Shown here piece by piece: positions 11,685 to 29,558 of a DNA stretch of 64,000 nt. Position 1 is the stretch's first letter, and every line of letters begins with the position of its first letter. A program made the position numbers and the translations under genes. The DNA comes from Gammaproteobacteria bacterium (GTDB lineage: Bacteria > Pseudomonadota > Gammaproteobacteria > GCA-2400775): positions 1,425 through 65,424 of the forward strand of contig WGFU01000037.1 of NCBI GenBank assembly GCA_015492075.1, given 5' to 3'. Under the pieces are notes generated by a model, which worked only from the letters and a program-made list of their open reading frames with translations, ran no database searches and was not told where the DNA came from.

Positions 11685-11970
11685 AGAGCACCGTTAATAC
11701 CGAACCGGCATCCCGATGCGTGAGACTATCTCCTTGTTTCGCCAAAGTGGCTTGATTCACACTTTGTCTACGATAGGATTCCTTGTTTTACCTTGAAACA
11801 AAGCTAGCTTCCCTCCCTTTCGGATCAATAAGTTAGCGTCGCCTACAGACTTTTGTTAGCGATCATGCGCCAGCGAGCGCATAATCTCGTCAGCCAGCTT
11901 GTTTAGAGTGAAATAACCCCCTATAATCAGTCGCTAAGTTTTTGTGGTACACACTCTGAGGACTCTGACC

Positions 11971-12093
11971 ATGTATAACATTTTCCCGCTGATCTTGATT
12001 CCGATTGCTATTTTCTTCGGTCTGGCAGTATTTCTTGCAGGATCCATGTCTGAATCTGCCATTGCCTCTTCGCTCGCTGATAAAGACGAATAG
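11971..12093 (+). CDS. 40-aa hydrophobic peptide (single TM), unannotated small ORF
   Basis: MYNIFPLILIPIAIFFGLAVFLAGSMSESAIASSLADKDE. GAGG RBS sits 9 nt upstream, and a candidate sigma70 promoter lies upstream (TTGTTT 11899-11904, 18 bp gap, TATAAT 11923-11928). Sits at the head of module C. Confidence 0.35.
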   Translation: MYNIFPLILIPIAIFFGLAVFLAGSMSESAIASSLADKDE

Positions 12094-12190
12094 AAATTCT
12101 TCGCGGCGGCTGACCTCAAGCGCCGCAATCTGAACTTTTTTCAGCGCTGACAACCTAAATCAAGGTTATCGGTGTCTGTCAGTATTCTTC

Positions 12191-12706
12191 ATGCCTGCCA
12201 ATGATCAAGACCAGCGCCTAATTGTCTTTTTATTAGGCTCGGCATTTTTTTTGTTTATCGGTACTACGCATGGCGTCGTACAGGTCTTGCCCGGAATTAG
12301 AGACTGGCTGGTCTCGGTCGGCACTCCGGTGAGCGGCCCCGGCCATATGATTGACCCCCTGGCCCACGCCCATATCAATCTGGTAGGCGGTATGGTGCTG
12401 ATCGGCATGGCAATGAGCTATTATCTGTTTCCACGCATTGCTGGCTGCCGCATCTGGTCGAGCCGATTGATCAGTCATTCATTTTGGTGGACTGCTGCCG
12501 GCGTAGTCGGGTTCTACAGCACCTTGATGGTATTTGGCATCACTGAAGGCAATTTGATGCGCGCCGGAGAGCTGGAACAACAAGCGGCCGTTCATGCCTA
12601 CTACGGGCTAACCATTAGCGTCCCCGCAACTATTATGGCCATTGGTTTCTGGATGTTTTTTATCAACATCTTTGCTACCGCACGCACCTACTTCAAGAAC
12701 CGCTAA
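12191..12706 (+). CDS. stand-alone heme-copper oxidase subunit I C-terminal-like membrane protein (half subunit I)
   Basis: 171 aa, ~5 TM; LAHAHINLVGGMV...SYYLFPRI aligns with the helix-X HxH region of the CcoN-like protein (AHAHLALLGF...VYYGLQ) and with the 188-aa paralog at 27115. Confidence 0.5.
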   Translation: MPANDQDQRLIVFLLGSAFFLFIGTTHGVVQVLPGIRDWLVSVGTPVSGPGHMIDPLAHAHINLVGGMVLIGMAMSYYLFPRIAGCRIWSSRLISHSFWWTAAGVVGFYSTLMVFGITEGNLMRAGELEQQAAVHAYYGLTISVPATIMAIGFWMFFINIFATARTYFKNR

Positions 12707-12718
12707 CACTACATCACC

Positions 12719-13243
12719 ATGATTCTAGACTGCGGCTGCCCCGAACATTACCCAGCGCAATGGGATGGACAAGACGTTAACCTCGGCGGGCACTGCGTTC
12801 ATACTCTATCGATTCTGATGTTGCTGCATATGCCATTGGCCTATGCAAGCTATCTACAGCGCCAAGCCTACGCTATTGCCGATCTCGAATTGAAAGAGCG
12901 CTGGCCCGGTCTAGTGTTGACCAAAACCGGCATGTTCCGCGGCGAAATATTACGCCTGATTGAACCCAGCGATTCGCCATCGCGATTAATCAAATATCTG
13001 CCAGTAGATTTTAATGTTCGCTGCGTTATTCACCAGGGAAGCATGGCTACATTGCGAAACAGCGCGCGCCTGCTGCAACAGAGTTTGTTCGACGAGGGCA
13101 AGCTACCTAAAGAAATGTATCTCTGCCACCTTACCTGCCCCAGATGTGCTGATGACCGCGGCGGCGAAAAGATTCTTCTATTACGCCGCTGGCAGGCCAG
13201 CGCTACACTTCAGCGACGCCTTGATAGAAAAAAACGGTCTTAG
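12719..13243 (+). CDS. Cys/His-rich hypothetical protein
   Basis: 174 aa; CGCPEH at the N-terminus and CHLTCPRC near the C-terminus suggest metal binding; no recognisable family. Confidence 0.4.
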   Translation: MILDCGCPEHYPAQWDGQDVNLGGHCVHTLSILMLLHMPLAYASYLQRQAYAIADLELKERWPGLVLTKTGMFRGEILRLIEPSDSPSRLIKYLPVDFNVRCVIHQGSMATLRNSARLLQQSLFDEGKLPKEMYLCHLTCPRCADDRGGEKILLLRRWQASATLQRRLDRKKRS

Positions 13244-13620
13244 TCATTTTTTAGCCAAGGCAGCTCGAATTTGAGCTCAGTCTGCTGCTTACCACGGCGC
13301 AGATGCACATAGAGATACTTATCCCCCTCTTCGATTTTTACCGCCCGGCGAAAAATACCAATATGGCCATCCTGTACCGACTGCACCCATTCTGCAGATG
13401 GGTTTGCGCGTAAAGAAACGACCAGGCTCGAAGCCGGCCCACCCTTTTTCTTGGTTGCTTTTAACCAAATTTCATTATGGCCTACGCGCACTGGATAGGG
13501 GTGGGTTTCTATTTTGAAAATAATATCATTCCATAGCTGTGCTGGAATACGGGCACGCTCGCCTTTGCTGCAGGCAACGCTAAGTACACATAACAAAACA
13601 ATGAATAATAGTCGACGCAT
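13240..13620 (-). CDS. hypothetical periplasmic lipoprotein
   Basis: 126 aa; signal peptide ending LSVAC (lipobox-like); last gene of the long minus-strand polycistron. Confidence 0.45.
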   Translation of the reverse strand: MRRLLFIVLLCVLSVACSKGERARIPAQLWNDIIFKIETHPYPVRVGHNEIWLKATKKKGGPASSLVVSLRANPSAEWVQSVQDGHIGIFRRAVKIEEGDKYLYVHLRRGKQQTELKFELPWLKND

Positions 13621-13625: not shown

Positions 13626-13934
13626 TTATTGATCCTTTGCATTCAGGGTTAAATAGTTAGTAATCTCGCTGAGTTCGGACTCGTTAAGCAAACGCATTGC
13701 CCGTTGTGCCCGGTGTCTTTGCATACGCCAAACAACTGCTTGCCATTGCGCTGCCGTTTTTGTTTCCGGCTTGGGCAGGCCGTGGCAACCACTGCAATAA
13801 CGACTCAAGATAGTGTTTGCCGGTAGTTTCTTCACTGTTACTTTCTTATCAAACGCTGCCGGCTTACTATCACAGCCGACACTTAGCACTATCGCAATAA
13901 AGGCAATCAGACTACGGTTTATCCGGCTCATCAT
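13626..13934 (-). CDS. mono-heme c-type cytochrome lipoprotein
   Basis: 102 aa; lipobox LSVGC; single CSGCH heme-binding motif. Confidence 0.6.
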   Translation of the reverse strand: MMSRINRSLIAFIAIVLSVGCDSKPAAFDKKVTVKKLPANTILSRYCSGCHGLPKPETKTAAQWQAVVWRMQRHRAQRAMRLLNESELSEITNYLTLNAKDQ

Positions 13935-14361
13935 CGCCCCGCTTTACCTCTTTGTCAGAGTCTAAACGCCCCCCTGCCTTGGAACCATAAAGACTCAGCA
14001 TAGCGTAAATAAAACCGGCACAGATCGCGATATAGACCAAGGCCAAAGCAAAGCCCCAGTTAAACCATTCACGCTCAAAGCCTTCGCGGTCACCCCAGAA
14101 AGGAAAACTCAAACCGATAGCAAATAACAAGACGGCGATAATTACCGCGACAAACCACTTGGGTATGGATGCCTGAGATTCCGGAATCTTATCAACCATC
14201 TCCCAGTCTTCAAGCCCACGCTTGGCCAGACGCTCTTCTTCCGAGCTATAGCCGTAAAAATCTTCCGCCTCCTGGCCCCATTTGGGTTGGGTCGGAGAGG
14301 AAGCCACATCACTTGTCTTTGAATCAAGGTCTTTAACTTGGTCTGTTTGTTTGGTAGCCAT
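13912..14361 (-). CDS. CcoP N-terminal-domain-like membrane protein without heme c (FixP_N-like)
   Basis: 149 aa, 2 TM; RGLEDWEMVDKIPESQASIPKWFVAVII resembles the CcoP N-terminal motif (DGI.E.DN.LP.WW); no CxxCH; start overlaps CcoG-like stop by 1 nt. Confidence 0.45.
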   Translation of the reverse strand: MATKQTDQVKDLDSKTSDVASSPTQPKWGQEAEDFYGYSSEEERLAKRGLEDWEMVDKIPESQASIPKWFVAVIIAVLLFAIGLSFPFWGDREGFEREWFNWGFALALVYIAICAGFIYAMLSLYGSKAGGRLDSDKEVKRGDDEPDKP

Positions 14362-15668
14362 TATTTTTTTACCGATACATGATTAACACGGAAACTACTT
14401 TGCCAGCCGTCACCAGCCTTTACACGCACCAAAAACGGATAAAAACCTGGTGCCAGCTTATCACTAATAGTGAAATTTACATCTTGTCGCTGTGCAGTAC
14501 TAAATCGTGCAACATCCGCCTCGAGTTGATAACTGTTTTCCGGCAAACCCTCTATCGTTACGGACACTTCACTCGGCCTATAGAGTTTGTGGGCCAGAGA
14601 GACACGATACTCATTTATTTCTCGCCCTTGCGCAGTGCCGGTGTGAGAGACTGAAAACCGATATGGCTCATACGTCACCATGCCCCAGCCAAACATGCCC
14701 AGCCCCAATATCACTAACGGTAATATCCACAACAAGCGCGCACGCAATGCAGTCATCACATTGCGTGGTTCATCCCGGTCTTGCTGGCGCTGCCCCAGCT
14801 CAAATTTAAGCAGGCTAGCGCCTGTTTTACGCGAACCGCGAATATTCTGACAAGCGGCAATGCATTCACCACAATTGACGCAGGCGTCGTAGGTTTGCGT
14901 CTGACGTGGGTCAATCTCGACAAAGCATGCTGTCTGACAAAAATTACAGCGCGCGCATTCTTCTTGCTCCGATGCATCGTAAACAATGTGCAAGGTTTCT
15001 TTTGTTTTAAAAGAATGCTGCCAAACCTTGTAAACACACATAAAGCGGCAAAAGAAATGGCGTAGATATGCAACATCGATAAAAATTATCAATACAAAAA
15101 TACTATAAATATAGTATTCAGAACCGCTCATACGCTCTTCGCTCTGAAAAGTGACAAAATTCCACAACATATCCAGAGGGTAAAAATAAAGCATTGGCAC
15201 TAATGCAACGATCATCGAAAAGCCAAGCAGTATCGCGCCTAAGCCCAGCCAGTTAACAAATTTGTTTTTTCCAGATGACACTTTCATCGGCGCGCCATCA
15301 AGCATAATCTCCGAACGTTTGCCCAGCAAACGTCGGTGCCAATAATTGGCCCACTCCGACAGCGTGTTTTGCGGGCAGCTCCAGCCACAAAAGGCAGTGC
15401 CCACTGCAGAATAAGTGATAATCAGCGCGCTCGACACCATTAACCAAAAACCAATAATAATAAAAAAGTCGCCAAAATCGATCTGCCTACCAAGTATGAC
15501 AAAGGCACCCGCCAGCACATCAATACGAAACACCCCTAACAAGGGTATCAGTATCGCGACTAATACGGTAATCGCCTGTAACCATCGGCGGCGACGATGT
15601 AATTTTTGACCAAGGTTATTATTAACGGTAATAACCGGTATTTGAGAGAGGGTAGATGGTTGGTTCAT
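14361..15668 (-). CDS. ccoG: cytochrome c oxidase accessory polyferredoxin CcoG/FixG-like
   Basis: Two 4Fe-4S motifs CNFCQTAC and CVNCGECIAAC, ~5 TM, and a C-terminal FixH-like beta domain. Start taken at Met52 of the 486-aa ORF (MNQPS...) to avoid overlap with the upstream gene. Confidence 0.7.
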   Translation of the reverse strand: MNQPSTLSQIPVITVNNNLGQKLHRRRRWLQAITVLVAILIPLLGVFRIDVLAGAFVILGRQIDFGDFFIIIGFWLMVSSALIITYSAVGTAFCGWSCPQNTLSEWANYWHRRLLGKRSEIMLDGAPMKVSSGKNKFVNWLGLGAILLGFSMIVALVPMLYFYPLDMLWNFVTFQSEERMSGSEYYIYSIFVLIIFIDVAYLRHFFCRFMCVYKVWQHSFKTKETLHIVYDASEQEECARCNFCQTACFVEIDPRQTQTYDACVNCGECIAACQNIRGSRKTGASLLKFELGQRQQDRDEPRNVMTALRARLLWILPLVILGLGMFGWGMVTYEPYRFSVSHTGTAQGREINEYRVSLAHKLYRPSEVSVTIEGLPENSYQLEADVARFSTAQRQDVNFTISDKLAPGFYPFLVRVKAGDGWQSSFRVNHVSVKK

Positions 15669-15690
15669 AGCTGCTTCGCTTATTCTTGCT

Positions 15691-18300
15691 CTACTCGACC
15701 CGGAAGGGTTCTGATTCATACAATGGACTAATCTGATGTAACTGATCCAAGTATTGACGACTGGCGTTGTCATCTTCCAAACGCTGCGCCAAACGCAACA
15801 AGGCCGCAAGCGTAGGTACATGACCCGGCTTAACGGCCAGAATTCGCATCAAACCGGCTTTCTCTGTTTCAGTCGCGACTGTCATGCCAGACATGGACGC
15901 TAACATTCGGTCTGCCAGTGTACCACTGACCCATTGGTCACGTGGATTCCCGCGGTAGGCGAATTGCAAAAAACGCTGTGCTCGCTCGCTGTCACCACGC
16001 AGTTGCGCCTGCCAACTGCGCATTGATGCATCAACAGACAAATAAGAGCGTTCGAAACTTTGCAGATCAGCATATTCAATAGCAAGTTCCTGCGCTGATT
16101 CCCGTGCCTGCGGCCGCTGTGCCAGCAACCAGGAAATAACTTGCTGTAAATCAATCTCGCCACTGTAGCGCACTCGCGGCAAATGATATTCGATACGCGG
16201 CCGCCATTCGTCTTCGATAATACTTGATGGACTATCGATACGGCCGAAATAACGCCCAAGCCATGTCCAAACTCCTTCCCCTCCGGTCTTGCTTTGATCG
16301 GATTCAATGTTGTTTCTGTTGGCCAGCAGATGGCTAGCGCTGATCGCACCATCCTTGCCGCCTACCATCGCCAACCTAAAACCATCGACAAACAAACTAG
16401 CACCGGGGAAGCTTTGTTGAAAACTCTTGAGCACAATTTGCAACGCCTCCAGGTCAAACTGATTTAGCGCCAACCATTGTACAAACAGACCATTGTCGTT
16501 CAGACGCGCTTTAACCCTCTCAAACTGCTGCGATGACAACAACCGACTGCGGCCAACCATGTCAGGATGAAACAAATCGCCAATGATGACATCGTAATGT
16601 TCATGGTTACGCATCAGGTAGCGACGTGCATCATCACGCACGATACGCGCCTTATTGATCACATCACGATTAAGCGGTGAAAACCATTTTTCGGCCGATT
16701 CGATAACGCCTGCCGATAACTCCACCGCAGTGATATCAACATCAAAATCCAGTGCTGCCGATGCAGATATTCCTGTTCCCAAACCCAGGAACAATACTGT
16801 TTCAGCTTTAGAATGCAATAACAAAGGTAAGCGTGCCTGGTTTCTTTGTGCGACCACCGCTGTTGGCTCTGTCGATGCATCCATACGCTGTAAATCTGAC
16901 AACAGCAGACGCTGACCTTCGTTGGTTTCAACCACATGGGTCATCGCTATCGCATCTTCATGTATAAATAGCGTAGAACGACTGTTCGCATGCGCTTGCG
17001 GTAAAAGCTTGGTTACCGACGGCAAATCAGAAAAAACGGCAAAACTAACCAGCAACACTGGCAAGGCCAGCCATAACCTGCGCCACTGGCACCAACGCAT
17101 ACCTACGACAAACAATGTGAGTGCGGCAACAAGAATAGTCGCCGGAGTACCAATTAATGGCATTAATACAAACCCGGCCAACATAGCGCCAAGACCGGCA
17201 CCCACCGCATTAGCGCCATAGAGCCAAGCGCCGGCACTTGCCGAGTCGGCATACGCTCTCACCAATAATGGTAACCATGCGCCAAGACAAAATGTGACAG
17301 TAACCGTCGCCAGCGCTAATACGGCACCTTGCTTCATGAGTACATTCGGTAGCGAGCTGTATGTCAGCGTCTCCGCCCATGCCGATATCGACGGCAGACT
17401 GATTAATGAAACCACTGCTGCAAACGCCGCCACAAGGGGTAATAGATTCAACCAGATGCGGTGTCGCCCCCATTGGGATAAGGCGCTGCCCAGTGCGGTT
17501 CCGACCAGAAACACGGCAATAATCACTGCCAGCACATATTCGGTTCGTAACAATGCCATACCATAGAGCCGCGCCCATGCAACCTGCAATATCAGCGCCG
17601 CTGCACCAATTAAGGCGTAACTCAATAAATCATTAACTGCTGGCCTCGGCTGGCGATGGCCCGTATCTGTGCTTATCGCTGGCATCGACTGTGATAGCAA
17701 TAGAAACAGTATGCCAACAGCGATGCCCAGGGCGGCGATACTATAAAGGCTGTTAACCCAGCCTATGGCTGGCAATAATAAAACGGGGATCAAAGCGCCA
17801 ACGCCTGCCCCCACAGTGTTCGCTGCGTAGACATGGGCTACCGAAATAGACGATTCTTTTATCGCTGCCAGAATCAGGGGGAAACCCAAGCCTAGGGCGG
17901 TCGCTGGCACTAGCATAAAGAATAGAGCACCGATCACCTCCATGCCATGCCAGGCAGCTAGGCCAAGCTCGCCATAAGAACTGACGAGAACATTAACCCA
18001 GTACTCGTTGAGTGCGGGCAAAATGAGCGCATAGAGCGCCACTGCTATCTCAATACATGCAAATATCAGCAAGGGGTTTTTAAACGGTGCGAGAATTATT
18101 CTGCCTAAAATGCTGCCTAGGCCTAAACCGAGCATAAAGGCACTAACCGTAATCACCACGCCAAAATTGCTTACCCCAAACTGCAAGCTCAGCATCCGCA
18201 TCCAGAGCACTTCGTAAGACAGGGCGGCCAACCCCGACAGTGCATAGAGAGTAAGCAGGCTAATGGCGACTAAGCTTGTGTTTGACCGTATGGTGGTCAT
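15691..18300 (-). CDS. fused MFS-like membrane domain / spermidine synthase-like (PABS fold) protein with C-terminal TPR-like region
   Basis: 869 aa; ~14 TM N-terminal region starting LSGLAALSYEVLWMRML; SAM/aminopropyltransferase-like core LFLGLGTGISASAALDFDVDITAVE...DVIIGDLFHP; helical repeat tail. Confidence 0.7.
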   Translation of the reverse strand: MTTIRSNTSLVAISLLTLYALSGLAALSYEVLWMRMLSLQFGVSNFGVVITVSAFMLGLGLGSILGRIILAPFKNPLLIFACIEIAVALYALILPALNEYWVNVLVSSYGELGLAAWHGMEVIGALFFMLVPATALGLGFPLILAAIKESSISVAHVYAANTVGAGVGALIPVLLLPAIGWVNSLYSIAALGIAVGILFLLLSQSMPAISTDTGHRQPRPAVNDLLSYALIGAAALILQVAWARLYGMALLRTEYVLAVIIAVFLVGTALGSALSQWGRHRIWLNLLPLVAAFAAVVSLISLPSISAWAETLTYSSLPNVLMKQGAVLALATVTVTFCLGAWLPLLVRAYADSASAGAWLYGANAVGAGLGAMLAGFVLMPLIGTPATILVAALTLFVVGMRWCQWRRLWLALPVLLVSFAVFSDLPSVTKLLPQAHANSRSTLFIHEDAIAMTHVVETNEGQRLLLSDLQRMDASTEPTAVVAQRNQARLPLLLHSKAETVLFLGLGTGISASAALDFDVDITAVELSAGVIESAEKWFSPLNRDVINKARIVRDDARRYLMRNHEHYDVIIGDLFHPDMVGRSRLLSSQQFERVKARLNDNGLFVQWLALNQFDLEALQIVLKSFQQSFPGASLFVDGFRLAMVGGKDGAISASHLLANRNNIESDQSKTGGEGVWTWLGRYFGRIDSPSSIIEDEWRPRIEYHLPRVRYSGEIDLQQVISWLLAQRPQARESAQELAIEYADLQSFERSYLSVDASMRSWQAQLRGDSERAQRFLQFAYRGNPRDQWVSGTLADRMLASMSGMTVATETEKAGLMRILAVKPGHVPTLAALLRLAQRLEDDNASRQYLDQLHQISPLYESEPFRVE

Positions 18301-18309: not shown

Positions 18310-18684
18310 CTAAAATGGAAAAAACCAAACTACCGCTGCAATTCCATGTGCCAAGGCCAGGGTCACCGTCAAGCCTGCGCTGATCATATGCCAGACGAAC
18401 ACCTGTTTACCATATATGGCCATGCTAATACCCAGCACTGCTGTCGTCAGCACCAGTATTAACAAACTGCTACCCATAACAAAAAGGATGCTGTGTTTTT
18501 GCTTGATGCTGATCGCTCGTGGGCCGAGATCGATATCCTTGTCGGTAAACTCGCTGATCACATCCATGGCGTTATCGGTGGTTGTCACCGCATCGGTAGA
18601 CGCTACTACGGAGCTACCAAATAGCAGCGCCAGCACAAAGCCCACGGTTAAATAACGGCGACGCAACTGCAATAACATGGTCAT
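18310..18684 (-). CDS. hypothetical membrane protein
   Basis: 124 aa; signal peptide plus 2 TM; translationally coupled in the polycistron (4-nt overlap with upstream gene). Confidence 0.4.
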   Translation of the reverse strand: MTMLLQLRRRYLTVGFVLALLFGSSVVASTDAVTTTDNAMDVISEFTDKDIDLGPRAISIKQKHSILFVMGSSLLILVLTTAVLGISMAIYGKQVFVWHMISAGLTVTLALAHGIAAVVWFFPF

Positions 18685-18920
18685 TCAGAATCGGCATCGA
18701 TTTTGTTCTTGCCACTGTAGCGGCGTAAAGCAAAATACCAATACAAGATAGCCAACAGTACAAAAGGGGCCAATACTAAAAAACTGAGAAAAATAAAAAT
18801 CGCCCATGGCGTCTCAATCGTGACGTGAAAAAAACTATAACTGTCGATACCTGCCTGGGCCGAGGCCATTGGCAACAGCAATAACAAAAAAGCATATATG
18901 TTGTGTTTAAAATTAAGCAT
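18681..18920 (-). CDS. hypothetical small membrane protein
   Basis: 79 aa; signal peptide LLLLLPMASAQA plus 1 TM; starts 2 nt after the FGE gene stop. Confidence 0.4.
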   Translation of the reverse strand: MLNFKHNIYAFLLLLLPMASAQAGIDSYSFFHVTIETPWAIFIFLSFLVLAPFVLLAILYWYFALRRYSGKNKIDADSE

Positions 18921-21840: not shown

Positions 21841-21898
21841 GAACTAACACAGTAGTAGACAATGCTAGACTGAAAAAGGTTTAAAAATTCTAAGAAAA

Positions 21899-22114: not shown

Positions 22115-22744
22115 CTAATGACCGATTGAGTGGTCGGGCTGCCAATCAGACGGCGGCAAGCGCTTAACAACAATCATTACGGCTATACAAAAATAGAGCA
22201 CATAAAAAACGTCGATGGTGTAACCGAGATCCCAAGATGGCTGAACCCGAATCTTAACACCATCATCGCCAATCTCACCTTCAAAGTTTGCTAACGCCAC
22301 GTCTTTACCTACGACAGTATAGTAGTCCATATGGGCATTTTCGCGCTGCAATTCGATGATTTGGTCTTTAATTAGTCGCAGATCATTCATAGTTAACGGA
22401 TGACGATCCTGATGACCAGCCCATTTCGAACCCTGAGATTTCACTGTATTAACAATGTATTCCATTTTTGCTTCATCGTCAGGTAATTTAGCAACTTCTG
22501 GCGAGTCCATGAGCGCGATATATTCTTCGTATATCGCAGCCATCGGGCGTTGCCCCCACAAAGGCGCAGTAATCAAAAAGGCAGTAATAATAGTCAGAAC
22601 CAACAACCAGACCACGGCTTGTGGCAAACGGTTATTGTCCTCCATAATACCACCCAGGCTTTCATGTTCCCAAACATACTTCGCTTGCTCATTCTGGTCA
22701 TCAGTTGCCAGGGTATAAAGTGGTTTATCGAATTTCCAAGCCAT
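22115..22744 (-). CDS. CcoP N-terminal-like membrane protein lacking both heme c domains
   Basis: 209 aa; EHESLGGIMEDNNRLPQAVVWLLVL matches the CcoP N-terminal motif; TM, periplasmic domain and a C-terminal TM; no CxxCH. Confidence 0.5.
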   Translation of the reverse strand: MAWKFDKPLYTLATDDQNEQAKYVWEHESLGGIMEDNNRLPQAVVWLLVLTIITAFLITAPLWGQRPMAAIYEEYIALMDSPEVAKLPDDEAKMEYIVNTVKSQGSKWAGHQDRHPLTMNDLRLIKDQIIELQRENAHMDYYTVVGKDVALANFEGEIGDDGVKIRVQPSWDLGYTIDVFYVLYFCIAVMIVVKRLPPSDWQPDHSIGH

Positions 22745-22771: not shown

Positions 22772-23722
22772 TTACTTCAAACTCAAAACATAATCCATGA
22801 GATAACGTATTTCGCTATTTGGCGCATAATCGGGAACCTCAGGCGGATAAATACTCGTACCGGCGGCGTAAGCATTATAATCCGCCCGCCATTGATCATA
22901 GTCAATATCGTTACCATTAGCATCCACTTCACCCCAGAGATAATCGAAGCGAGGCATAATTGAATGTGGCTGCACCAATCTTGGGTTAAAGAAGTGCATC
23001 ATCAGCCATTCTTTTGACGAGTTACGTGAACCAACATGCAGCAAGTCAGGCGCTTTGCGATCCGAACCAAAGGCTGTTGGCGCTTCACCATTAAAGTCTC
23101 CCAGCCGCGGCGGTAAACCGAAGTATTGCCAATCCTGTGTTTGTTCTGGCAATAGTGTGTGACACCACCAGCAACCTTCACGCACAAACATGGTCTTACC
23201 GCTACCTACATGCTGCTTATCGCTGTCTGCAGCAGCTGCCAATACCAACTCAGCTGTCCAGTCACGCGTTGCCGTCACATTTTCGATATAAGGGAAGGTC
23301 TCCCCTTCGTAGTCACCACGCGACACCAAAAATACAGCGCCTTGATCTTCCTCTGCTTCACCCACGCGACCCTCGTCGGCACTTAAGGCCTGCACTTCCC
23401 TACCCAAAATATCTGGGTTACGAATTGCGCTCGGAAAAGGTGTCCCGGCGGTATAAACATAGGCATCTACCGGGTCAATATCCGCGCCAGTAACTGGGTC
23501 TTTTTTAACCGTCACCGTTAAAGGCTTGCCTTTCCCTCGCAAGAATGGGTCTTCATACGAGAAACCAGAGTTATGACCATAGGACAGACCTTTGACCAGA
23601 CCAGTTTCCGTCACACCCACACTATAGATAGTTAAGCTGGGCATATAGAGGGTGATCATCATTGAACCACCCAGGGCGATACCAAACATGCGGGTACCAA
23701 TTTTATATTCTCTAAAAGCCAT
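22772..23722 (-). CDS. CcoO/FixO-like mono-heme cytochrome c subunit with ~110-aa insertion
   Basis: 316 aa; N-terminal TM; CWWCH; C-terminal NSSKEWLMMHFFNPRLVQPHSIMPRF resembles the conserved CcoO C-terminal segment; heme motif displaced to ~residue 180. Confidence 0.7.
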   Translation of the reverse strand: MAFREYKIGTRMFGIALGGSMMITLYMPSLTIYSVGVTETGLVKGLSYGHNSGFSYEDPFLRGKGKPLTVTVKKDPVTGADIDPVDAYVYTAGTPFPSAIRNPDILGREVQALSADEGRVGEAEEDQGAVFLVSRGDYEGETFPYIENVTATRDWTAELVLAAAADSDKQHVGSGKTMFVREGCWWCHTLLPEQTQDWQYFGLPPRLGDFNGEAPTAFGSDRKAPDLLHVGSRNSSKEWLMMHFFNPRLVQPHSIMPRFDYLWGEVDANGNDIDYDQWRADYNAYAAGTSIYPPEVPDYAPNSEIRYLMDYVLSLK

Positions 23723-23784: not shown

Positions 23785-25191
23785 TTAACGTTCGTAAGCG
23801 ATTTCATGCGGTAAGCGTCCCACTGGCACCGGTGTACCTGCACGAGCCGTCATCCACATGTTGTAGAGCCATACAACGTTACCAGTAAATACCATGGTAC
23901 CGCCAACCCAACGCGCAATCATGTACGGATGCTCCGCAATCACCACGTCGATATACGGCACTTCGTAGATCTTGGCAGCGCCTTGAATCAAACCGGCAAT
24001 CGTGATCGAAATCCAGTAGGTGGCGAAACCGATCAGCAAGAACCAGAAATGAAAGTTGGCCAGCGCCAAAGAGTAGATCTTGCGACGCAGAATCGTTTGC
24101 AGACCATAGTACACGGCTGCCGCCTCAAGGAAGGTCGAGAAACCCAGCAAAGCAAGGTGAGCATGAGCGACAATCCAGCCAGTGCCATGGACATACCAGT
24201 TGATCGCACGTGTCTGCTGAAAACCGCCCTGCATATTCAAAGGAATCGCCAGCATAACCCCGGTGATGGTGAACCGGATCTCAATATTATCAACAAAGTA
24301 ATGCCACTTGCCCGTCATGGTTAACAACAAGTTCGACACGAATGCGATCGCAGGCACCAGAATCAACACCCCTTCAACAGAAGCGAAAGATTTCAGCCAC
24401 TCAGGCAGTGGTGAAGACATCAAATGGTGGGCTGCCGGCGTTGAGTAGAACACCACCACCGACCAGAAATGCAAGTGACCAATACGGTGAGAGTACAGTG
24501 GGTTACCGGTAATTTTCGGCACCGTATAGTATGCAATCGCCGCCGCCACCGGGGTAATCCACAGGCCAAGGATGTTATGGGCATGCCACCAGGTCAAATA
24601 GGCTTCGGTCAATCCAGTCAGGGAAAAGTATTCCGGCAGATTACCGACCAGCACCACGATCATCAGCATGAATATCGCCGCACCAAAGAACCAGTTGGTG
24701 GTATAGATACCCTGCGTCTTACGATGAACAATGGTCATCCAGACATTGATTCCCAGCGGCAGCAATACTGCAAACAGGATAATCAAATCAATCGGCCATG
24801 GAAAATCAGTGTATTCACGGCCTGAAGTCACACCGGCCCACATCAAACACAAAGCGACGGCAAGACCACCGTTCCAGTTGAAGCAGGTCCAGATGCCCAG
24901 CTTCTCGGACCATAGCTTGGTATTACCCAAGGCAGGCGTGATATACATAAAGGCCATTGCAAACGCCATGGAAATCCAGCCAAAAATAACGGCCATGACA
25001 TGAACCTGGCGCATATGACCAAAGGCAAACATATAGCTACCGGTAACAAAATCCGGAAAAGCCAACTTGGCTGCGTTGAAAGAACCTAGTCCAGTACCAA
25101 TAATGAACCAGATAATGGATGAAAACCCAAAAAAGACAGCCGCAGAACCTGCGGGAATATCTTCGTTCTTCGCAAAGAGATACTTGAACAT
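23785..25191 (-). CDS. C-family (cbb3-type) heme-copper oxidoreductase subunit I, CcoN-like, divergent
   Basis: 468 aa, 12 TM. W201-W-H-A-H205-N replaces the CcoN WWYGHN motif; Y249-5x-H255-H256 (crosslink Tyr plus CuB His pair) and helix-X H343-x-H345 are present; heme ligand region FGHMRQVHVMAVIF. Confidence 0.85.
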   Translation of the reverse strand: MFKYLFAKNEDIPAGSAAVFFGFSSIIWFIIGTGLGSFNAAKLAFPDFVTGSYMFAFGHMRQVHVMAVIFGWISMAFAMAFMYITPALGNTKLWSEKLGIWTCFNWNGGLAVALCLMWAGVTSGREYTDFPWPIDLIILFAVLLPLGINVWMTIVHRKTQGIYTTNWFFGAAIFMLMIVVLVGNLPEYFSLTGLTEAYLTWWHAHNILGLWITPVAAAIAYYTVPKITGNPLYSHRIGHLHFWSVVVFYSTPAAHHLMSSPLPEWLKSFASVEGVLILVPAIAFVSNLLLTMTGKWHYFVDNIEIRFTITGVMLAIPLNMQGGFQQTRAINWYVHGTGWIVAHAHLALLGFSTFLEAAAVYYGLQTILRRKIYSLALANFHFWFLLIGFATYWISITIAGLIQGAAKIYEVPYIDVVIAEHPYMIARWVGGTMVFTGNVVWLYNMWMTARAGTPVPVGRLPHEIAYER

Positions 25192-25275: not shown

Positions 25276-25368
25276 CTAGTGTTTACCCGGCATCATCAAA
25301 TACCAAGCGAACCACATGCTTGAGAATGCCAGCACAATACAAAATACAGTTGCGATAATAGTAACCAT
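25276..25368 (-). CDS. 30-aa single-TM peptide, unannotated (candidate small oxidase subunit)
   Basis: MVTIIATVFCIVLAFSSMWFAWYLMMPGKH; GAGGA RBS 6 nt upstream; lies between the 95-aa gene and the CcoN-like gene; weak paralogy to the peptide at 29338..29430. Confidence 0.4.
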   Translation of the reverse strand: MVTIIATVFCIVLAFSSMWFAWYLMMPGKH

Positions 25369-25398: not shown

Positions 25399-25686
25399 TT
25401 AGGCTGCAGCACGTGACTGCGCTTCCAAAGCACCATGACGTGACGCAGAAATCATCATGATCGCCATAAAGGCAAAGCCGAACACAATCATGCACCAATT
25501 GATGAAGCCCATAAAGGTGGTTGGATCATAGGCCTGACCACCCCAACCGCCCCAGTCATCAAAACGACCGCGACCGAGAGCACACATCAATGCGGCACCA
25601 AAAACACTGCCGTTGCCCATGCCGGTGGTAACACCAGCAACCAAGCTCACCCAAAAAGTTTTCGAATATGGCAATAAATTGTCCAT
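25399..25686 (-). CDS. hypothetical 2-TM membrane protein, first gene of the CcoN-like operon
   Basis: 95 aa; AAGGAG RBS 5 nt upstream; Gly/Trp-rich loop (DDWGGWGGQ). Confidence 0.4.
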   Translation of the reverse strand: MDNLLPYSKTFWVSLVAGVTTGMGNGSVFGAALMCALGRGRFDDWGGWGGQAYDPTTFMGFINWCMIVFGFAFMAIMMISASRHGALEAQSRAAA

Positions 25687-25916: not shown

Positions 25917-26141
25917 ATGATGCCTTATCATAACTGGATATCAATAAAAGAAATTATTCTCTACCTTATCGCCATTGTCACGGGCCTTTTTATCGCTGCT
26001 TATTCGGTACATATGTTGATTGGTGGACTTGTCAGCGCTACCACTGAGAAAACCATTATCGCCATTGTCTGCACCCTCATGGCACTGGCCATCGGATTCA
26101 TGGTTTACGACGTGAAAAAACAGCGTGAAAAACAGGGCTGA
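25917..26141 (+). CDS. hypothetical 2-TM small membrane protein
   Basis: 74 aa; only plus-strand gene in the island interior; divergent from the CcoN-like operon. Confidence 0.35.
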   Translation: MMPYHNWISIKEIILYLIAIVTGLFIAAYSVHMLIGGLVSATTEKTIIAIVCTLMALAIGFMVYDVKKQREKQG

Positions 26142-26157: not shown

Positions 26158-26610
26158 TTATTTGTATACGCGCAGACTTGCCAGTGCATCATCATAAACG
26201 GCCTGAGACTCGAACTGACCACGATGAAAAACGTATTGGCGTTTTTTGCCCGACATATCAATCCCTGTTAGACCAAAGGATTTGCCAGCGTAATCTGAAA
26301 AAAAACGCACTTCTTTCACCAGCGCAACCTGGTCATTATTGCGTAGCCGGACACTGACGTGCTGCTTACTCACACTCAGCGCAACCGGTGCGCTCGGCAA
26401 CAACATCAGTCGACCGGAAAGAATGCGGTTGGCGCCGATAAAGGCCATAAAACTAGCGAGAAACATCAGCAAATAGGCAAACGCTTGATTATTCTGGTGC
26501 CACAGCACCAATGAATAAGCACCAAGCAAAATCACCACTGGCAGATACAGCAATGAATCCCACGCCGCGCCGCGCCGGTCTGGCGTTAATTTGTAATCAC
26601 TTTTGGCCAC
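26158..26610 (-). CDS. membrane protein with C-terminal PH-like (YdbT/bPH-type) domain
   Basis: 150 aa; 2 N-terminal TM plus ~80-aa soluble domain; last gene of module B. Confidence 0.4.
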   Translation of the reverse strand: MAKSDYKLTPDRRGAAWDSLLYLPVVILLGAYSLVLWHQNNQAFAYLLMFLASFMAFIGANRILSGRLMLLPSAPVALSVSKQHVSVRLRNNDQVALVKEVRFFSDYAGKSFGLTGIDMSGKKRQYVFHRGQFESQAVYDDALASLRVYK

Positions 26611-26614: not shown

Positions 26615-27172
26615 CTATCCTGCGTCGGCTAAGGTCTCGGCCAGTAAAGCGTCCATTTCACCATAAAGCATACGACCTGGCCGCCTGAACTTAACTTGTC
26701 GGTCGGCGCCAATAACAAATGTCCACGGATCACCTTGGACACCAAATGCAGTGAAAGCTTCAGGGTTTTGATACTGATCCATATGCAAAAACAGCACATC
26801 ATCTTCGTACTTATTCAATATGGCTTTGAGCATCTGCAGCTGTTTATCGCATACCGTACAATGTCCAGGTGTAGCAAATTCGAGCAAAATCGTCTTGTTT
26901 TGCGCCAAGGCTTCATCGATCGAAAGCTGATACATGCGGGCATCGGGATGTCTGTAGGTTGTAATGCGGCTGAAATCACCGTTCACGTCCGCCAGCGTCT
27001 TGGTCTTCAATGACGGGGCGATCGCACCAACCCGAAGCTGACCCTCTGGCCTGATATCGCATGCGCTTAAGGCTGCTGCTACTACGATTGTCAGCAATAT
27101 TGCTATAAACGGCCTCACGAGACCTCCTTCGCAGACGATGATGGTGCGCTGCCTAGAACGTCTTTTTCCCAA
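26615..27172 (-). CDS. thioredoxin-fold (TlpA/ResA-like) thiol-disulfide oxidoreductase lipoprotein
   Basis: 185 aa; lipobox LSAC; CxxC active site FATPGHCTVC; redoxin fold length. Confidence 0.6.
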   Translation of the reverse strand: MGKRRSRQRTIIVCEGGLVRPFIAILLTIVVAAALSACDIRPEGQLRVGAIAPSLKTKTLADVNGDFSRITTYRHPDARMYQLSIDEALAQNKTILLEFATPGHCTVCDKQLQMLKAILNKYEDDVLFLHMDQYQNPEAFTAFGVQGDPWTFVIGADRQVKFRRPGRMLYGEMDALLAETLADAG

Positions 27173-27681
27173 CCGACACAGCTACGAAAAACGTTATAGC
27201 CCCAGATAATGTTGGCTAACAGCACCATACTGCCAAAGATGCCCATCGCAGCCAACCAAGGCCTGATTATGGCTTCCACTTCATCGGGCGGCAAACTCAC
27301 ACTCGCAGTACCACCGAGAATACCTGCAATCGTAAACAAACTCACCATACCGATCAGACCGGTGTTATGGATCCAAAAGTGTACTTTTACCAATTTCAAA
27401 CTGAAAATAGGGCGTTTAACCAAACGCGGCACGAAATAATACACCGAGGCAAAAATCGCCATCTCCACCCAGCCTAACAGGTTAACGTGGGTGTGCGCGC
27501 GTACAATCAGCTGCCCATGTGCGCGATGATCGACGAAATGGCGCAGTTCGGCCACCCCTCCCATTAACGCACCCCAGGAAAAGCCGATTATGCTGTAGAT
27601 GATACAGGCATAAAGAAACCACAGTGTATAACGCGTGTATTCAATATCTGTCTCCCAGGGGGAGTGACTCGAAACCTTCAC
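27115..27681 (-). CDS. stand-alone heme-copper oxidase subunit I C-terminal-like membrane protein (half subunit I), paralog of 12191..12706
   Basis: 188 aa, ~5 TM; RAHTHVNLLGWVEMAIFASVYYFVPRL and HFWIHNTGL align to helix IX-XII of the CcoN-like protein; 4-nt overlap with the upstream cytochrome c gene. Confidence 0.5.
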   Translation of the reverse strand: MKVSSHSPWETDIEYTRYTLWFLYACIIYSIIGFSWGALMGGVAELRHFVDHRAHGQLIVRAHTHVNLLGWVEMAIFASVYYFVPRLVKRPIFSLKLVKVHFWIHNTGLIGMVSLFTIAGILGGTASVSLPPDEVEAIIRPWLAAMGIFGSMVLLANIIWGYNVFRSCVGWEKDVLGSAPSSSAKEVS

Positions 27682-28355
27682 TGCTGCGCCTCCGGGTTTT
27701 CAGCCAATTTCCCATTGGGAGACTTCAGGACTTCGGTAAAATTCTTGTCACGCACATCACCGTATTTCTCTTTCCAGCTTTCCGGCGCCCAGATACTGAG
27801 CATGCTCTCAATAAACGGCGAGCGCCCTTCCGGCGGCTTAGGTGCCGTTGAGGAACCCTGTTTAGCACGCAGTTGAGACAAAAACGTTGCGATCAAGTCA
27901 TGCTCTCGCGGCGTCAGCTCAGCCACATAGGCAGCTTCTTTACCCAAACCGTGATCAAGCGTTGCTGCGTGGTAGGTGTCTTTGTATACCGGCTCTGGGT
28001 CACTGAGAAAGCGCCTGATCCAATCCTGGCTACGACGCGAGCCAATACCATCGAGCGTGGTCTGACCGCCCATACTCGTGCCAGACAAAAAAGCACGATG
28101 ACAAGACGCACAACGCTTAGCCTTGAAAAGTCGATGGCCCTTATTGCCGTCTTCGGACAAATCAAAACTGGTGAGATTTGAAAAAATCTGCTTGTTCGAA
28201 GTCAGGCGATACCCTTCCAAGCCGACATAACCCACCAACGCCACCACAATAAATACACCAGCGATGCCAAATAAGACCTTTTCGCCTCGCTTTAGCCTCG
28301 ACTTCGCAGCCATAAAAACCCCGCAATTATTCCAGATAAAACAAAAGGTGGACAA
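27678..28355 (-). CDS. membrane-anchored mono-heme c-type cytochrome (paralog of 20449..20997)
   Basis: 225 aa; N-terminal TM; CASCH; shares RGEK...LDGIGSRRSQDWIRRFLSDP with the module A cytochrome. Confidence 0.6.
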   Translation of the reverse strand: MSTFCFIWNNCGVFMAAKSRLKRGEKVLFGIAGVFIVVALVGYVGLEGYRLTSNKQIFSNLTSFDLSEDGNKGHRLFKAKRCASCHRAFLSGTSMGGQTTLDGIGSRRSQDWIRRFLSDPEPVYKDTYHAATLDHGLGKEAAYVAELTPREHDLIATFLSQLRAKQGSSTAPKPPEGRSPFIESMLSIWAPESWKEKYGDVRDKNFTEVLKSPNGKLAENPEAQQ

Positions 28356-28419
28356 GCCACCCTTTGCTTAGTTCAAACCCGCACCATCATGCCATGGCGC
28401 GGGATACCACATACCGAAC

Positions 28420-29181
28420 CTAGTGGTAAGGCACGTGGCGTGGCGGTAAGCGGGAATTACCCATGCTGTAGGGGGATGCTTCCTTGGTGCTGAGATAGGC
28501 AGCAACGTTGTGGATGTCCTCGTCGGACATATTCTTGGCAACATTGCGCATCGCTGCCTGCGGATCATTGGTCCGCACACCATCACGCCATTGCTTCATT
28601 TGAGCCACGAGATAGGTATATTTCTGCTGCCCAATCATCGGGAACATTGGCTCAACGCCGCGGCCGTTATAATCATGGCAAGAACGGCAAGCTGCCACAC
28701 TCTTTTCAGCAATACCGTGATTAACGATGGCTTTACCCAAATAGGTTTCACCGACCTCAACACCATTCGCCTTCAATGTGGCCAGATTAGAAACAGAGGC
28801 ATCAACCGTTTCTCTATCATGTTGCCATTCGCTGATATAAGCCGCCACATCAAGGCGCTCCTGCGAAGTCAGGCCTTTGGCGTTAGCATTCATGATAAAC
28901 ATGACGGTATCTTCACGCTTGTCGGTCGCATAATCTTCCAGCTGCTTGACGATAAACTGGAAAATCTGGCCGGCCAGACGCGGGGTGCCTAAATCGTCAC
29001 TGCCCATTCCGTCCGGCATATGGCAGCCAGAACACGCTGGTACGCCAGTGGCTTCTTTGCCGTTGTTATAAATCTGCTCGCCGTTTGCTACATCGACAGT
29101 CACGCCGCCGGCGAAAACAGCGGAACTTGCTGAAAACGCAAAAGCAAAAAGCGAACCCACCAACCTAGTTGAGTAACGCAT
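28420..29181 (-). CDS. di-heme c-type cytochrome (c4-like), periplasmic
   Basis: Two heme motifs CSGCH and CRSCH. Start moved to the internal Met (MRYSTRLVG...) with signal peptide and GGAGGG RBS; the ORF-track 29271 start adds a non-signal extension. Confidence 0.7.
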   Translation of the reverse strand: MRYSTRLVGSLFAFAFSASSAVFAGGVTVDVANGEQIYNNGKEATGVPACSGCHMPDGMGSDDLGTPRLAGQIFQFIVKQLEDYATDKREDTVMFIMNANAKGLTSQERLDVAAYISEWQHDRETVDASVSNLATLKANGVEVGETYLGKAIVNHGIAEKSVAACRSCHDYNGRGVEPMFPMIGQQKYTYLVAQMKQWRDGVRTNDPQAAMRNVAKNMSDEDIHNVAAYLSTKEASPYSMGNSRLPPRHVPYH

Positions 29182-29337
29182 TACTACACCCTCCAAAAAA
29201 CTGTGTCGAGGCCGTAACCGGCCTTTTGTTAAAGGTAGTCTGTGACCTACTGCCAACGCAGAGCATTTCACTATGCAGCAGCCAATAATGTCAGATCTAT
29301 GTCAGGTAAGTGAATCACCTACCATTTTTTGGTTTGC

Positions 29338-29430
29338 TTAAGAGTTTTTCTTCAGCAAAAACCAAGCAAATCCCCAAGCCAGCGGGAACCAAATCGCATA
29401 AAGTATAACTACACTGGCAGTATCTAGCAT
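29338..29430 (-). CDS. 30-aa single-TM peptide, unannotated (paralog of 25276..25368)
   Basis: MLDTASVVILYAIWFPLAWGFAWFLLKKNS; GAGGT RBS 6 nt upstream; lies upstream of the di-heme cytochrome gene; shares the W-FAW(F/Y)L(L/M) C-terminal pattern. Confidence 0.4.
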   Translation of the reverse strand: MLDTASVVILYAIWFPLAWGFAWFLLKKNS

Positions 29431-29558
29431 GGCTTACCTCAATTATTTATGATTCATTTAATGAACAAAACGGGCGACTGTATACCATGTTAACCCTACT
29501 CAGCGCAAGTTTATACAAACTGTAGCAGGGCCAAAAATGGCGCCTTTTTTACCCAAAT

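Follow-up and report, generated by a model that had tools for sequence, protein, structure and literature searches.

A probable copy of a conserved supercluster around a divergent cbb3-type oxygen reductase without CcoP in an uncultured gammaproteobacterium

The block and its oxidase core

The stretch of DNA considered here, 64,000 nucleotides of contig WGFU01000037.1 (positions 1,425 to 65,424; assembly GCA_015492075.1, an uncultured gammaproteobacterium) and called the window below, carries a block of about 19 kb in which about 28 densely packed genes are arranged around ccoN, the gene for the catalytic subunit I of a cbb3-type oxidase. We read this block as a copy of a conserved supercluster that groups about 28 genes around a divergent cbb3-type oxygen reductase without the subunit CcoP, a reading to which we give a probability of roughly 0.7. 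The block is real and is largely as an initial annotation, made from the sequence alone, had described it. About 30 genes were then counted between ggt (gamma-glutamyltranspeptidase, 9993..11684, plus strand; Pfam PF01019 G_glu_transpept, 6.5e-156) and mutM (31127..31975, minus strand; Fapy_DNA_glyco, H2TH and zf-FPG domains), a flanking housekeeping gene outside the block; the density and the almost exclusively membrane or periplasmic character of the products hold, and the count comes down to about 28. Hydropathy prediction gives transmembrane (TM) helices or an N-terminal anchor to nearly all of the proteins. All five c-type cytochromes are there, with six in-frame CxxCH motifs in a six-frame census in place of the seven first reported, and so is the one full-length COX1 protein, but the two proteins taken for half-length versions of it are one third of a subunit I each, four-helix units. 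Pfam recovers the polyferredoxin (Fer4_5/Fer4_18) and the thioredoxin-like protein, and scans of the block with Pfam and NCBIfam find no regulator, transposase or integrase domain, as originally stated. The minus-strand run from 20997 down to 13240 does have the reported spacing of 22 nt or less, or overlaps, but it holds 10 genes rather than 12.

Conservation was followed from the central 869-aa protein of the block as an anchor. Relatives of this protein occur in 398 species-representative genomes; the best 80 of these 398 loci were fetched with 10-kb flanks, and the block was confirmed in the 80 fetched loci (numbered here with the prefix L). Presence and order were scored by tblastn, and all counts out of 51 refer to the loci with full 10-kb flanks.

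CcoN (23785..25191, minus strand, 468 aa; COX1, 2.2e-73) aligns over its full length with the Pseudomonas stutzeri CcoN chain 3mk7_A (E = 4e-65), and this alignment places its metal ligands at H60 (in GHMRQVH), H207 (WWHAHN), H257/H258 (AAHH) and H345/H347 (HAH). All six histidines are thus kept, two for heme b, one for heme b3 and three for CuB. The cross-link tyrosine, Y251 on helix 7 of the P. stutzeri protein and six residues before the HH pair, is matched Tyr on Tyr where FYSTPAAHH aligns with VYIWAGPHH, and both the ligand histidines and this tyrosine are conserved in 60 orthologues. Six histidines together with the cross-link tyrosine mark a C-family O2 reductase and set it apart from a nitric oxide reductase (NOR). 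On this sequence evidence CcoN is the catalytic subunit of a divergent heme-copper oxygen reductase of the cbb3 type (C family), predicted to reduce O2 and pump protons. Its median identity across classes is 83%, against 34-62% for neighboring genes, which indicates either unusually strong constraint or a more recent exchange of the catalytic gene.

If subunit I were instead an NOR, or the block mainly a nitrosative-stress system, some features would fall into place: the C family stands closest to cNOR and qNOR, a Foldseek search with the model of one of the short paralogues described below (hN2) also retrieves NOR chains, and a distant relative of these short proteins lies beside a DUF1858 gene. 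We nevertheless regard this as highly improbable, given that CcoN has CuB-type histidines and the helix-7 tyrosine and finds its best match in cbb3 CcoN, that its partner is CcoO-like and not NorC, and that expression in carriers of the block follows aerobic lithotrophy (PMC8788666, PMC5371394, PMC7029218).

Directly downstream of ccoN lies the gene for a CcoO-like mono-heme subunit (22772..23722, minus strand; FixO 1.1e-16; CxxCH at residue 184). Only its residues 174-269 align with solved CcoO (residues 55-144), and an extra conserved periplasmic segment of about 120-140 aa separates the anchor from the heme domain. The position of ccoP is occupied by p209 (22115..22744, minus strand), a protein that contains no CxxCH and whose CcoP N-terminal-like anchor reaches 20.4 bits against the FixP_N cutoff of 24.9 (E = 4e-4); the oxidase is therefore one without a di-heme CcoP, with p209 in the ccoP slot. 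A di-heme c4-type cytochrome is encoded separately, at 28420..29181 on the minus strand (two CxxCH; two Cytochrom_C domains, 1.3e-16), and it scores 26 bits against the CcoP model TIGR00782, whose cutoff is 180. In the loci from Sideroxydans metagenome-assembled genomes (MAGs) L048, L065 and L070 this di-heme gene directly adjoins the oxidase operon, and Slit_2657, the homolog in Sideroxydans ES-1 of cyc1(PV-1), has been reported to sit at a cbb3 cluster (PMC8788666). Since p209 is heme-less and a separate di-heme gene lies beside the oxidase operon in these organisms, the roles of CcoP may have been split, with p209 serving as anchor and free or anchored cytochromes serving as the point of electron entry.

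Five small membrane proteins complete the oxidase operon, all on the minus strand. One of them, the single-TM protein p94 (21256..21540; FixS E = 0.0027, below gathering), is CcoS/FixS-like, with an invariant W..NEQFDEDIKY following the TM helix, a motif that we take to resemble CcoS. The other four are probably extra oxidase subunits: p95 (25399..25686), the first gene of the operon, with an invariant TGMGNGSVFGA; p30a (25276..25368), a 30-aa single-TM peptide just upstream of ccoN that tblastn finds in 60 loci (35 aa in L002 and L004); p38 (21969..22085), a conserved single-TM micro-protein after p209, annotated in the MAG GCA_027053915.1 and in loci L002-L004 and found by tblastn in 61 loci; and the small 2-TM protein p96 (21550..21828; 92 aa in the MAG annotation).

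Between p38 and p96, within this operon, lies a perfect palindromic hairpin with an 11-bp stem (21897-21922, AAATGCCGCTCA GATG AGCGGCATTT). It is the single strong hairpin that stands out among the terminator-like sites of the sequence, which number 37 against 22.7 ± 5.1 in shuffles, and it could be an internal attenuator or RNA-processing site that parts ccoN-ccoO-p209-p38 from p96-p94. A sigma-70 promoter scan stayed at chance level, the promoter regions of the block contain no convincing FNR/Anr box (TTGAT-N4-ATCAA), and an Rfam scan of the whole window returned no matches.

Gene order and distribution across lineages

The proteins of the block have close relatives in several classes of Proteobacteria. 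CcoN homologs among the matches listed are 76-100% identical, the named ones coming from Gamma-, Beta- and Zetaproteobacteria (including Mariprofundales), and an identical copy lies on contig JALUQH010000221.1 of the gammaproteobacterial MAG GCA_027053915.1. Loci titled Gallionella, Sideroxydans and Candidatus (Ca.) Nitrotoga are among the carriers of the block, and a Mariprofundus ferrooxydans protein (P0213) is among the homologs of the 869-aa anchor protein.

The core of the block stands in the same order in all 51 full-flank loci. Its first half begins with a group formed by the di-heme cytochrome gene, cytB (a membrane-anchored mono-heme cytochrome), hN2 (a short CcoN paralogue), trx (a thioredoxin-fold lipoprotein), p150 and the divergently transcribed p74, and continues with the oxidase operon, p95, p30a, ccoN, ccoO, p209, p38, p96 and p94. 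The second half comprises an accessory operon, made up of cytA (the other anchored mono-heme cytochrome), p163, a gene for a protein with the fold of formylglycine-generating enzyme (FGE), p79, p124, the gene for the 869-aa protein, ccoG, p149, a small cytochrome c gene that is present in 18 of the 51 loci, and a lipoprotein gene, and it ends with hyd and hN1, the second short CcoN paralogue. Retention is high for most of these: ccoN, cytA, p94, the FGE-fold gene, p79 and p124 were found in all 51 loci, ccoO, p209, p163 and p95 in 50, hN1 in about 48, p74 in 48, p96 in 47, ccoG and p149 in 46, the lipoprotein gene in 43 and p150, always after trx, in 38.

Where the arrangement does vary, it varies by whole modules. 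In Gallionellaceae the di-heme gene, cytB, hN2, trx, p150, p74 and p463 lie beyond hN1, usually inverted; in Ca. Nitrotoga only p463 and p74 of this module are found, upstream of the oxidase operon, the others not being seen within 10 kb. The initial annotation had described a modular, partly duplicated electron-transfer system rather than a single canonical oxidase operon, and the relocation of modules as units in Gallionellaceae bears this out. It also bears on the extent of the block. The range first given, 11900-29440, leaves out p463 (29713..31104, plus strand), a 12-TM membrane protein of 463 aa with no Pfam or NCBIfam match. This protein moves with p74 and the hN2 module, and because it travels with the block in Gallionellaceae and Nitrotoga the right edge of the conserved block is at 31104.

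The same annotation had called the block an accessory island inserted between ggt and mutM, and had proposed comparing the synteny of these two genes. This comparison finds the block in the same order across lineages, with ggt next to hN1 in 15 of the 51 loci, all from related Gammaproteobacteria, and mutM adjacent in 2. If the block were a horizontally acquired island at this site, one might cite the very similar blocks in three proteobacterial classes (CcoN 76-88% identical), flanks that differ between lineages, the mildly lower G+C fraction of 0.45-0.47 at 20-26 kb and the best matches between ES-1 and Mariprofundus PV-1 that were noted by Emerson 2013 (PMC3770913). Among the differing flanks, the block directly follows genes for alternative complex III (ACIII) in the betaproteobacterial MAG GCA_027442175.1 (L004), and in zetaproteobacterial contigs (L002-L003) its neighbors are an RND efflux system and a CCP/MauG gene. 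Yet the block contains no integrase or transposase, the window has no tRNA, and the flanking repeats are short and at chance level; the G+C fraction is 0.45-0.51 in the block against 0.50-0.53 in the flanks, a mild dip; the surroundings are core housekeeping genes; and no empty ggt-mutM site was found among the relatives retrieved. With no mobility genes, tRNA or repeats, only this mild dip and an order common to many lineages, insertion as an island is not supported, and we consider it very unlikely. The hN1-ggt junction is kept in at least 15 species-level gammaproteobacterial genomes, which argues for long residence at this site. An ancient transfer of the supercluster between classes, as distinct from a recent insertion at ggt-mutM, may have taken place.

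Several observations concern the surroundings of the block. The loci in which ggt adjoins hN1 include L006, L007, L009-L012 and L016; periplasmic ggt beside a thioredoxin and copper-handling cluster could point to a link with glutathione or thiol turnover, or could merely reflect shared ancestry. Between ggt and hN1 an 87-aa open reading frame (ORF; 11890-12153, minus strand) is of low complexity, matches no family and is probably not a gene. Positions 1-9347 of L004 hold a complete ACIII set (multiheme cytochrome, molybdopterin-type protein, FeS protein, NrfD, ActD and cytochrome c), so that two proposed respiratory modules of iron oxidizers, ACIII and the oxidase, are physically linked there. 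The rest of the 64-kb window encodes core housekeeping functions (rpoH, ftsEX, ftsY, coaD, rpoN, ptsN, hprK, rapZ, recG, spoT and others). Its end, at about 60000-64000, where the G+C fraction falls to about 0.42 and a gene at 61652-63106 (minus strand) encodes a Schlafen/AlbA_2 + HATPase_c_4 protein, looks more foreign or defense-like than the oxidase block does.

Short CcoN paralogues and accessory genes

Two free-standing proteins of the block are related to CcoN, each over a single four-helix arc. The first, hN1 (12191..12706, plus strand, 171 aa, about 4 TM), matches COX1 positions 308-427 (1.8e-10) and aligns by hhalign with CcoN 321-454 (96.2%); the motif GPGHMIDPLAHAHxN is invariant in its 64 orthologues. 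The second, hN2 (27115..27681, minus strand, 188 aa, 4 TM; COX1 1.3e-16), has 720 homologs, with orthologues of 168-185 aa that are 70-88% identical and 71 invariant columns that include H63, H65, H101 and H105. Its profile matches all three thirds of CcoN, most strongly residues 321-450 with helices 9-12 (hhalign, 98.2%), then 162-300 with helices 5-8 (92.6%) and 10-155 with helices 1-4 (80.3%), and from this we conclude that each short protein corresponds to one arc of the pseudo-threefold, 12-TM subunit I. The HxH of the short proteins aligns with the heme b3 and heme b ligands of CcoN. An AlphaFold2 (AF2) model of hN2 shows four long helices (pLDDT 79.9, pTM 0.73), and its best PDB matches in Foldseek are cbb3 CcoN chains; since the model, taken by itself, folds up into a bundle, these matches are weak (E about 0.01, root-mean-square deviation (rmsd) about 9 Å), and they serve only to support the profile result.

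Both short proteins match the C-terminal third of COX1 only in domain searches, which is what decaying pseudogene fragments of a duplicated ccoN might look like. This explanation is hardly tenable. Uniform length, high identity and invariant histidines are the marks of functional genes rather than remnants, the model of hN2 is a confident four-helix structure, and 4-nt overlaps couple hN2 to cytB upstream and to trx downstream, an arrangement consistent with translational coupling. The proteins also belong to a wider family: an exhaustive HMMER search returned 505 representatives, including many proteins of 130-190 aa with AHxHxNLLGW and (H)FW motifs, and matched full-length oxidases in three stretches. 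Taken together, these conservation data effectively refute the pseudogene reading.

Other free-standing short COX1-like proteins, which partly overlap with the Pfam family DUF2871, are likewise of about 130-190 aa with four TM helices, AHxHxNLLGW and P..G+.YS...(H)FW, and they carry the annotation "cbb3-type cytochrome c oxidase subunit I"; in contrast to these, hN1 and hN2 make up tight orthologous groups of their own that go with the oxidase supercluster. No published function was found for the short members, and a literature search on DUF2871 gave nothing relevant. A distant 162-aa single-arc protein, P0381, is encoded immediately upstream of a DUF1858 gene on an ENA contig of 1145 bp (L085). 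The contexts of P0381 and of another distant relative, P0387, are contigs of about 1 kb in which the DUF1858 neighbor is the sole clue; from it one may suspect that relatives elsewhere in the family act in other settings, perhaps connected with gas or iron centers.

What the two short paralogues do in the block can be framed in more than one way. A quite unlikely proposal is that they oligomerize, for example into trimers that rebuild a 12-helix body like that of a heme-copper oxidase, or pair with cytB or cytA, and so form a new minimal heme c/heme b redox enzyme beside the cbb3 core; they would then be relatives of the ancestral unit that was triplicated into subunit I.

The initial annotation had named four pairs of paralogues, which we compared by all-against-all blastp and by hhalign of orthologue alignments from the 80 related loci. 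The resemblance is solid for the two membrane mono-heme cytochromes, cytA and cytB (blastp E = 3.6e-12; hhalign 99.4%, E = 6e-21), and for hN1 and hN2 (blastp E = 8e-8; hhalign 98.7%, E = 3e-16). The CcoP-N-like pair, p209 and p149, is not significant in blastp (E = 1.1) and is detected at the profile level only (hhalign 95.1%, E = 3e-8 over about 49 columns), where the aligned stretch consists of the CcoP N-terminal-like motif plus a TM helix, so that composition may inflate the score. For the two 30-aa peptides, p30a and p30b, no significant similarity was found (blastp E = 3.8) and the pairing falls away; each is conserved at its own position.

Gene starts in what follows are those of the annotation of MAG GCA_027053915.1, as the longest-ORF starts are too long for several genes. 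The MAG calls give 435 aa for ccoG (start 15668), 167 aa for trx, 253 aa for the di-heme cytochrome, 211 aa for cytB and 169 aa for cytA, superseding longest-ORF extents of 14361-15821, 26615-27172, 28420-29271, 27678-28355 and 20449-20997, respectively, and with them the apparent 130-nt overlap of ccoG with the gene for the 869-aa protein vanishes.

The accessory operon lies entirely on the minus strand and opens with cytA (20449..20958), a TM-anchored mono-heme cytochrome c (Cytochrom_C 3.9e-9; CxxCH). It is followed by p163 (19995..20486), a polytopic membrane protein. That it might be one more single-arc CcoN paralogue, the third and a very divergent one, was considered and ruled out, as it gives no hhalign signal and has no HxH. 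The third gene encodes a membrane-anchored protein of 356 aa with the FGE-sulfatase fold (18923..19993; PF03781 3e-53). Its PDB matches (OvsA, SUMF2, ToxD, FGE and EgtB) span residues 132-289 only, and its conserved C-terminus, RGGSxKSDPFxTxxYHRNxSxPxYASDFxGFRC in 71 orthologues, is without the Cys pair; lacking this catalytic, Cu-binding pair, the protein cannot be a true FGE. An ergothioneine-like pathway, combining an EgtB-like protein with a methyltransferase fold and ggt, was also ruled out, for the DinB-like domain of EgtB/OvoA is absent: the N-terminal part consists of a TM anchor and some 70 further residues, and the EgtB model matches residues 175-277 alone, with 128 bits against a cutoff of 360. 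In many genomes the Cu enzyme NirK is found together with NirV, another protein of the FGE fold (PMC4770552), and by this analogy the protein of the block might act in the maturation of a Cu site, which we offer as a lead only.

Next come p79 (18681..18920), a single-TM protein with an invariant DSY...HV, and p124 (18310..18684), a small protein of 2-3 TM with invariant H99 and H113. The 869-aa protein (15691..18300) is the only product of the block to exceed the cutoff of an NCBIfam model (NF037959, 99.7 bits, cutoff 40). In its AF2 model (pLDDT 75) an MFS-like domain of 12-14 TM is fused to a spermidine-synthase Rossmann domain and a helical repeat, and Foldseek retrieves spermidine synthases/SpeE (rmsd about 3 Å) and the MFS transporters G6PT1/SLC37A4. 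The Rossmann domain matches PF01564 (6.7e-10) and carries an invariant GLGTGI, a class-I Rossmann GxGxG-type nucleotide motif, and against the equivalog models of spermidine synthase the protein stays far below the cutoff, at 59 versus 260 bits. A role of the MFS domain as a CcoA-like Cu importer was dropped after inspection, which found no Met/His-rich motifs among the invariant residues.

Downstream of this gene lies ccoG (14361..15668), for a CcoG-like membrane polyferredoxin of 435 aa (Fer4_5 and Fer4_18; TIGR02745 6.7e-31, below cutoff). CcoG is a Cu(II) reductase required for CuB insertion (PMC7558416), and its homolog here would by analogy be a candidate cupric reductase. The operon continues with p149 (13912..14361), a 2-TM protein that has the CcoP N-terminal-like motif in common with p209, then a small mono-heme cytochrome c lipoprotein of 102 aa (13626..13934; CxxCH at residue 47; Pfam DHC 3.5e-5), and closes with a small lipoprotein of 126 aa (13240..13620; invariant lipobox Cys17). 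On the plus strand, co-oriented with hN1, follows hyd (12719..13243; PF20603 Bact_hydrolase, 3.1e-10), which is found beside hN1 in Gammaproteobacteria loci only. The protein, for which no TM helix is predicted, stands alone in the block as clearly not membrane-bound; the invariance of C5, C7, C140 and C143 suggests a metal site.

In the hN2 module, cytB (27678..28313, minus strand; Cytochrom_C 5.4e-7; CxxCH) is a TM-anchored mono-heme cytochrome c, and upstream of the di-heme gene lies p30b (29338..29430, minus strand), a 30-aa single-TM peptide that is annotated in the MAG and weakly conserved; relaxed tblastn finds ORFs 40-44% identical to it in 15 loci, apparently beside the di-heme gene. 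The thioredoxin-fold lipoprotein Trx (26615..27118, minus strand; Thioredoxin 2.4e-6; invariant lipobox C38) has an invariant HCxxC within ATPGHC105TxC108D that is reminiscent of the TlpA-type reductases that prepare Cu sites. After trx come p150 (26158..26610, minus strand), with 2 TM and a conserved soluble C-terminal domain, and the small 2-TM protein p74 (25917..26141, plus strand), which moves with p463 and the hN2 module.

Proposed electron flow and comparison with known systems

If the block is the supercluster that we take it to be, its cytochromes c would take up electrons from the lithotrophic donor of the organism, for instance Fe(II), reduced sulfur or a donor outside the cell. The carriers to the heme c of CcoO would be cytA, cytB, the small lipoprotein cytochrome and the di-heme c4/Cyc1-like protein; from this heme c the electrons would move on through heme b to the heme b3-CuB center of CcoN, where O2 would be reduced and protons pumped. 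The ten-gene operon downstream of the oxidase and the thioredoxin lipoprotein would probably serve maturation, through CcoG-like Cu(II) reduction, CcoS-like cofactor insertion and the handling of thiols and copper. For hN2 and the translationally coupled cytB two roles can be envisaged, either a small heme c/heme b membrane module or a scaffold function of hN2 in the assembly of CcoN, and this choice between a heme-binding partner of cytB and a CcoN maturation scaffold is the least certain part of the proposal.

Alternatively, all or most of the membrane proteins of the block, including hN1, hN2, cytA, cytB, p209, p149 and the small TM proteins, could be subunits of one supercomplex, an "alternative complex IV". 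This idea was suggested by the Tenderiales preprint (10.1101/2022.05.06.490989), and it fits the near-universal co-occurrence of about 25 genes in fixed order and the preponderance of membrane proteins among their products. A GE(K) motif before the TM helix is common to cytA, cytB and p96, and together with the CcoP anchor motif of p209 and p149 it could supply docking elements. We still find a single supercomplex unlikely. The modules are independent of each other, the hN2 module being relocated or inverted in Gallionellaceae and mostly not seen within 10 kb in Nitrotoga; where they have been studied, CcoG, thioredoxin and CcoS-like proteins help to assemble the oxidase without being part of it; and conservation is very uneven, with a median of 83% for CcoN against 34-55% for many accessory proteins.

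Against our own reading of the block as a cbb3-type supercluster with this electron path, several points have to be set. CcoN reaches 223 bits against an equivalog cutoff of 583 (TIGR00780), CcoO 59 against 201 and CcoG 108 against 317, and at such a distance from the NCBIfam cutoffs, activities known from the canonical enzymes may not apply here. CcoS and CcoP-N are assigned on sub-threshold matches combined with short motifs, and the block contains neither CcoH nor CcoI. By architecture and synteny the di-heme protein appears Cyc1-like, its orthology being drawn from synteny only; placement of CcoN in the distal clade (Ducluzeau et al. 2008) is inferred from the lack of ccoP and ccoQ and from the literature, not from a tree; and that hN1 and hN2 most likely bind heme via HxH is read from their conserved histidines.

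These questions matter since the supercluster appears to be the main or a major terminal oxidase branch in neutrophilic iron oxidizers, in the nitrite oxidizers Ca. Nitrotoga and in cathode-oxidizing Tenderiales. Its carriers matter to bioelectrochemistry and to the cycles of iron, nitrogen and carbon, and for about 20 of its genes no role is known. The key to an "alternative complex IV" would lie in telling subunits from assembly factors, in what replaces CcoP and in the role of the single-arc paralogues.

The novelty that the initial annotation implied does not hold, the cluster having already been described in the Tenderiales preprint (10.1101/2022.05.06.490989) and, probably, by Emerson 2013 (PMC3770913). 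Fig. 2B of the preprint shows a region with cytochrome cbb3 oxidase 1 and 2 that begins with a di-heme cytochrome, a mono-heme cytochrome, a truncated CcoN, a thioredoxin, four unnamed genes, CcoN and CcoO, continues with three unnamed genes, a mono-heme cytochrome, one unnamed gene, a "Ser/Thr kinase" and a single-TM protein, and ends with two unnamed genes, CcoG, one unnamed gene, a mono-heme cytochrome, two unnamed genes and a truncated CcoN (10.1101/2022.05.06.490989). Its authors found 26 of the 30 genes conserved, noted that they had been seen earlier in freshwater iron oxidizers and raised the idea of "a sort of alternative complex IV" (10.1101/2022.05.06.490989). Compared by the gene list of the figure legend, the cbb3-1/cbb3-2 region of Ca. 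Tenderia electrophaga has the same genes in the same order as the window, one to one, and our FGE-fold protein is the one annotated there as a "Ser/Thr kinase". The present copy differs in belonging to another gammaproteobacterial MAG and in that p463 and ggt are recognized as conserved neighbors. In Ca. Tenderia the polyferredoxin and three neighbors in the syntenic region respond to electrode potential (PMC5371394), and one alternative "complex IV", whose identity with this CcoN/CcoO is not confirmed, is among the most highly expressed gene sets (PMC5371394).

In iron oxidizers, Emerson et al. 2013 described 20 genes in conserved order common to Sideroxydans ES-1 and Mariprofundus PV-1 (PMC3770913), 14 of them with Leptospirillum homologs and the function of the suite unknown (PMC3770913); our block probably corresponds to this suite of about 20 genes. 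The Sideroxydans, Gallionella and zetaproteobacterial loci have the same genes in the same order as the window and an oxidase without ccoP and ccoQ, the Gallionellaceae version differing in that the module of hN2, Trx, the di-heme cytochrome and p463 is on the other side and that hyd and ggt are absent. Iron oxidizers carry "proximal" and "distal" cbb3 clusters (PMC8788666, PMC7029218), and in ES-1 the distal cbb3 is expressed about 3 times more than the proximal one (PMC8788666). Since the published descriptions of the cluster hold no biochemistry, the block does not coincide with a characterized complex of a model organism.

The canonical systems with which it can be compared are CcoNOQP with ccoGHIS, as in P. 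stutzeri (3MK7/5DJQ) and Rhodobacter capsulatus (6XKW). With these the block shares the ligands of a 12-TM CcoN, the cross-link tyrosine, a mono-heme CcoO, a CcoG-family polyferredoxin and a CcoS-like peptide; it differs from them in having no di-heme CcoP, a CcoO longer by about 120-140 aa, no CcoH or CcoI and about 20 additional conserved genes. What is known, then, is the published supercluster, and what is new is its instance in this uncultured gammaproteobacterium. To the earlier descriptions the present comparison adds the spread of the anchor protein's relatives over 398 species genomes, with the full block confirmed in the 80 loci fetched, the movement of modules as units, the boundary at p463, the recognition of the short CcoN paralogues as single arcs that keep heme ligands and the finding that the FGE-fold protein is not a true FGE.

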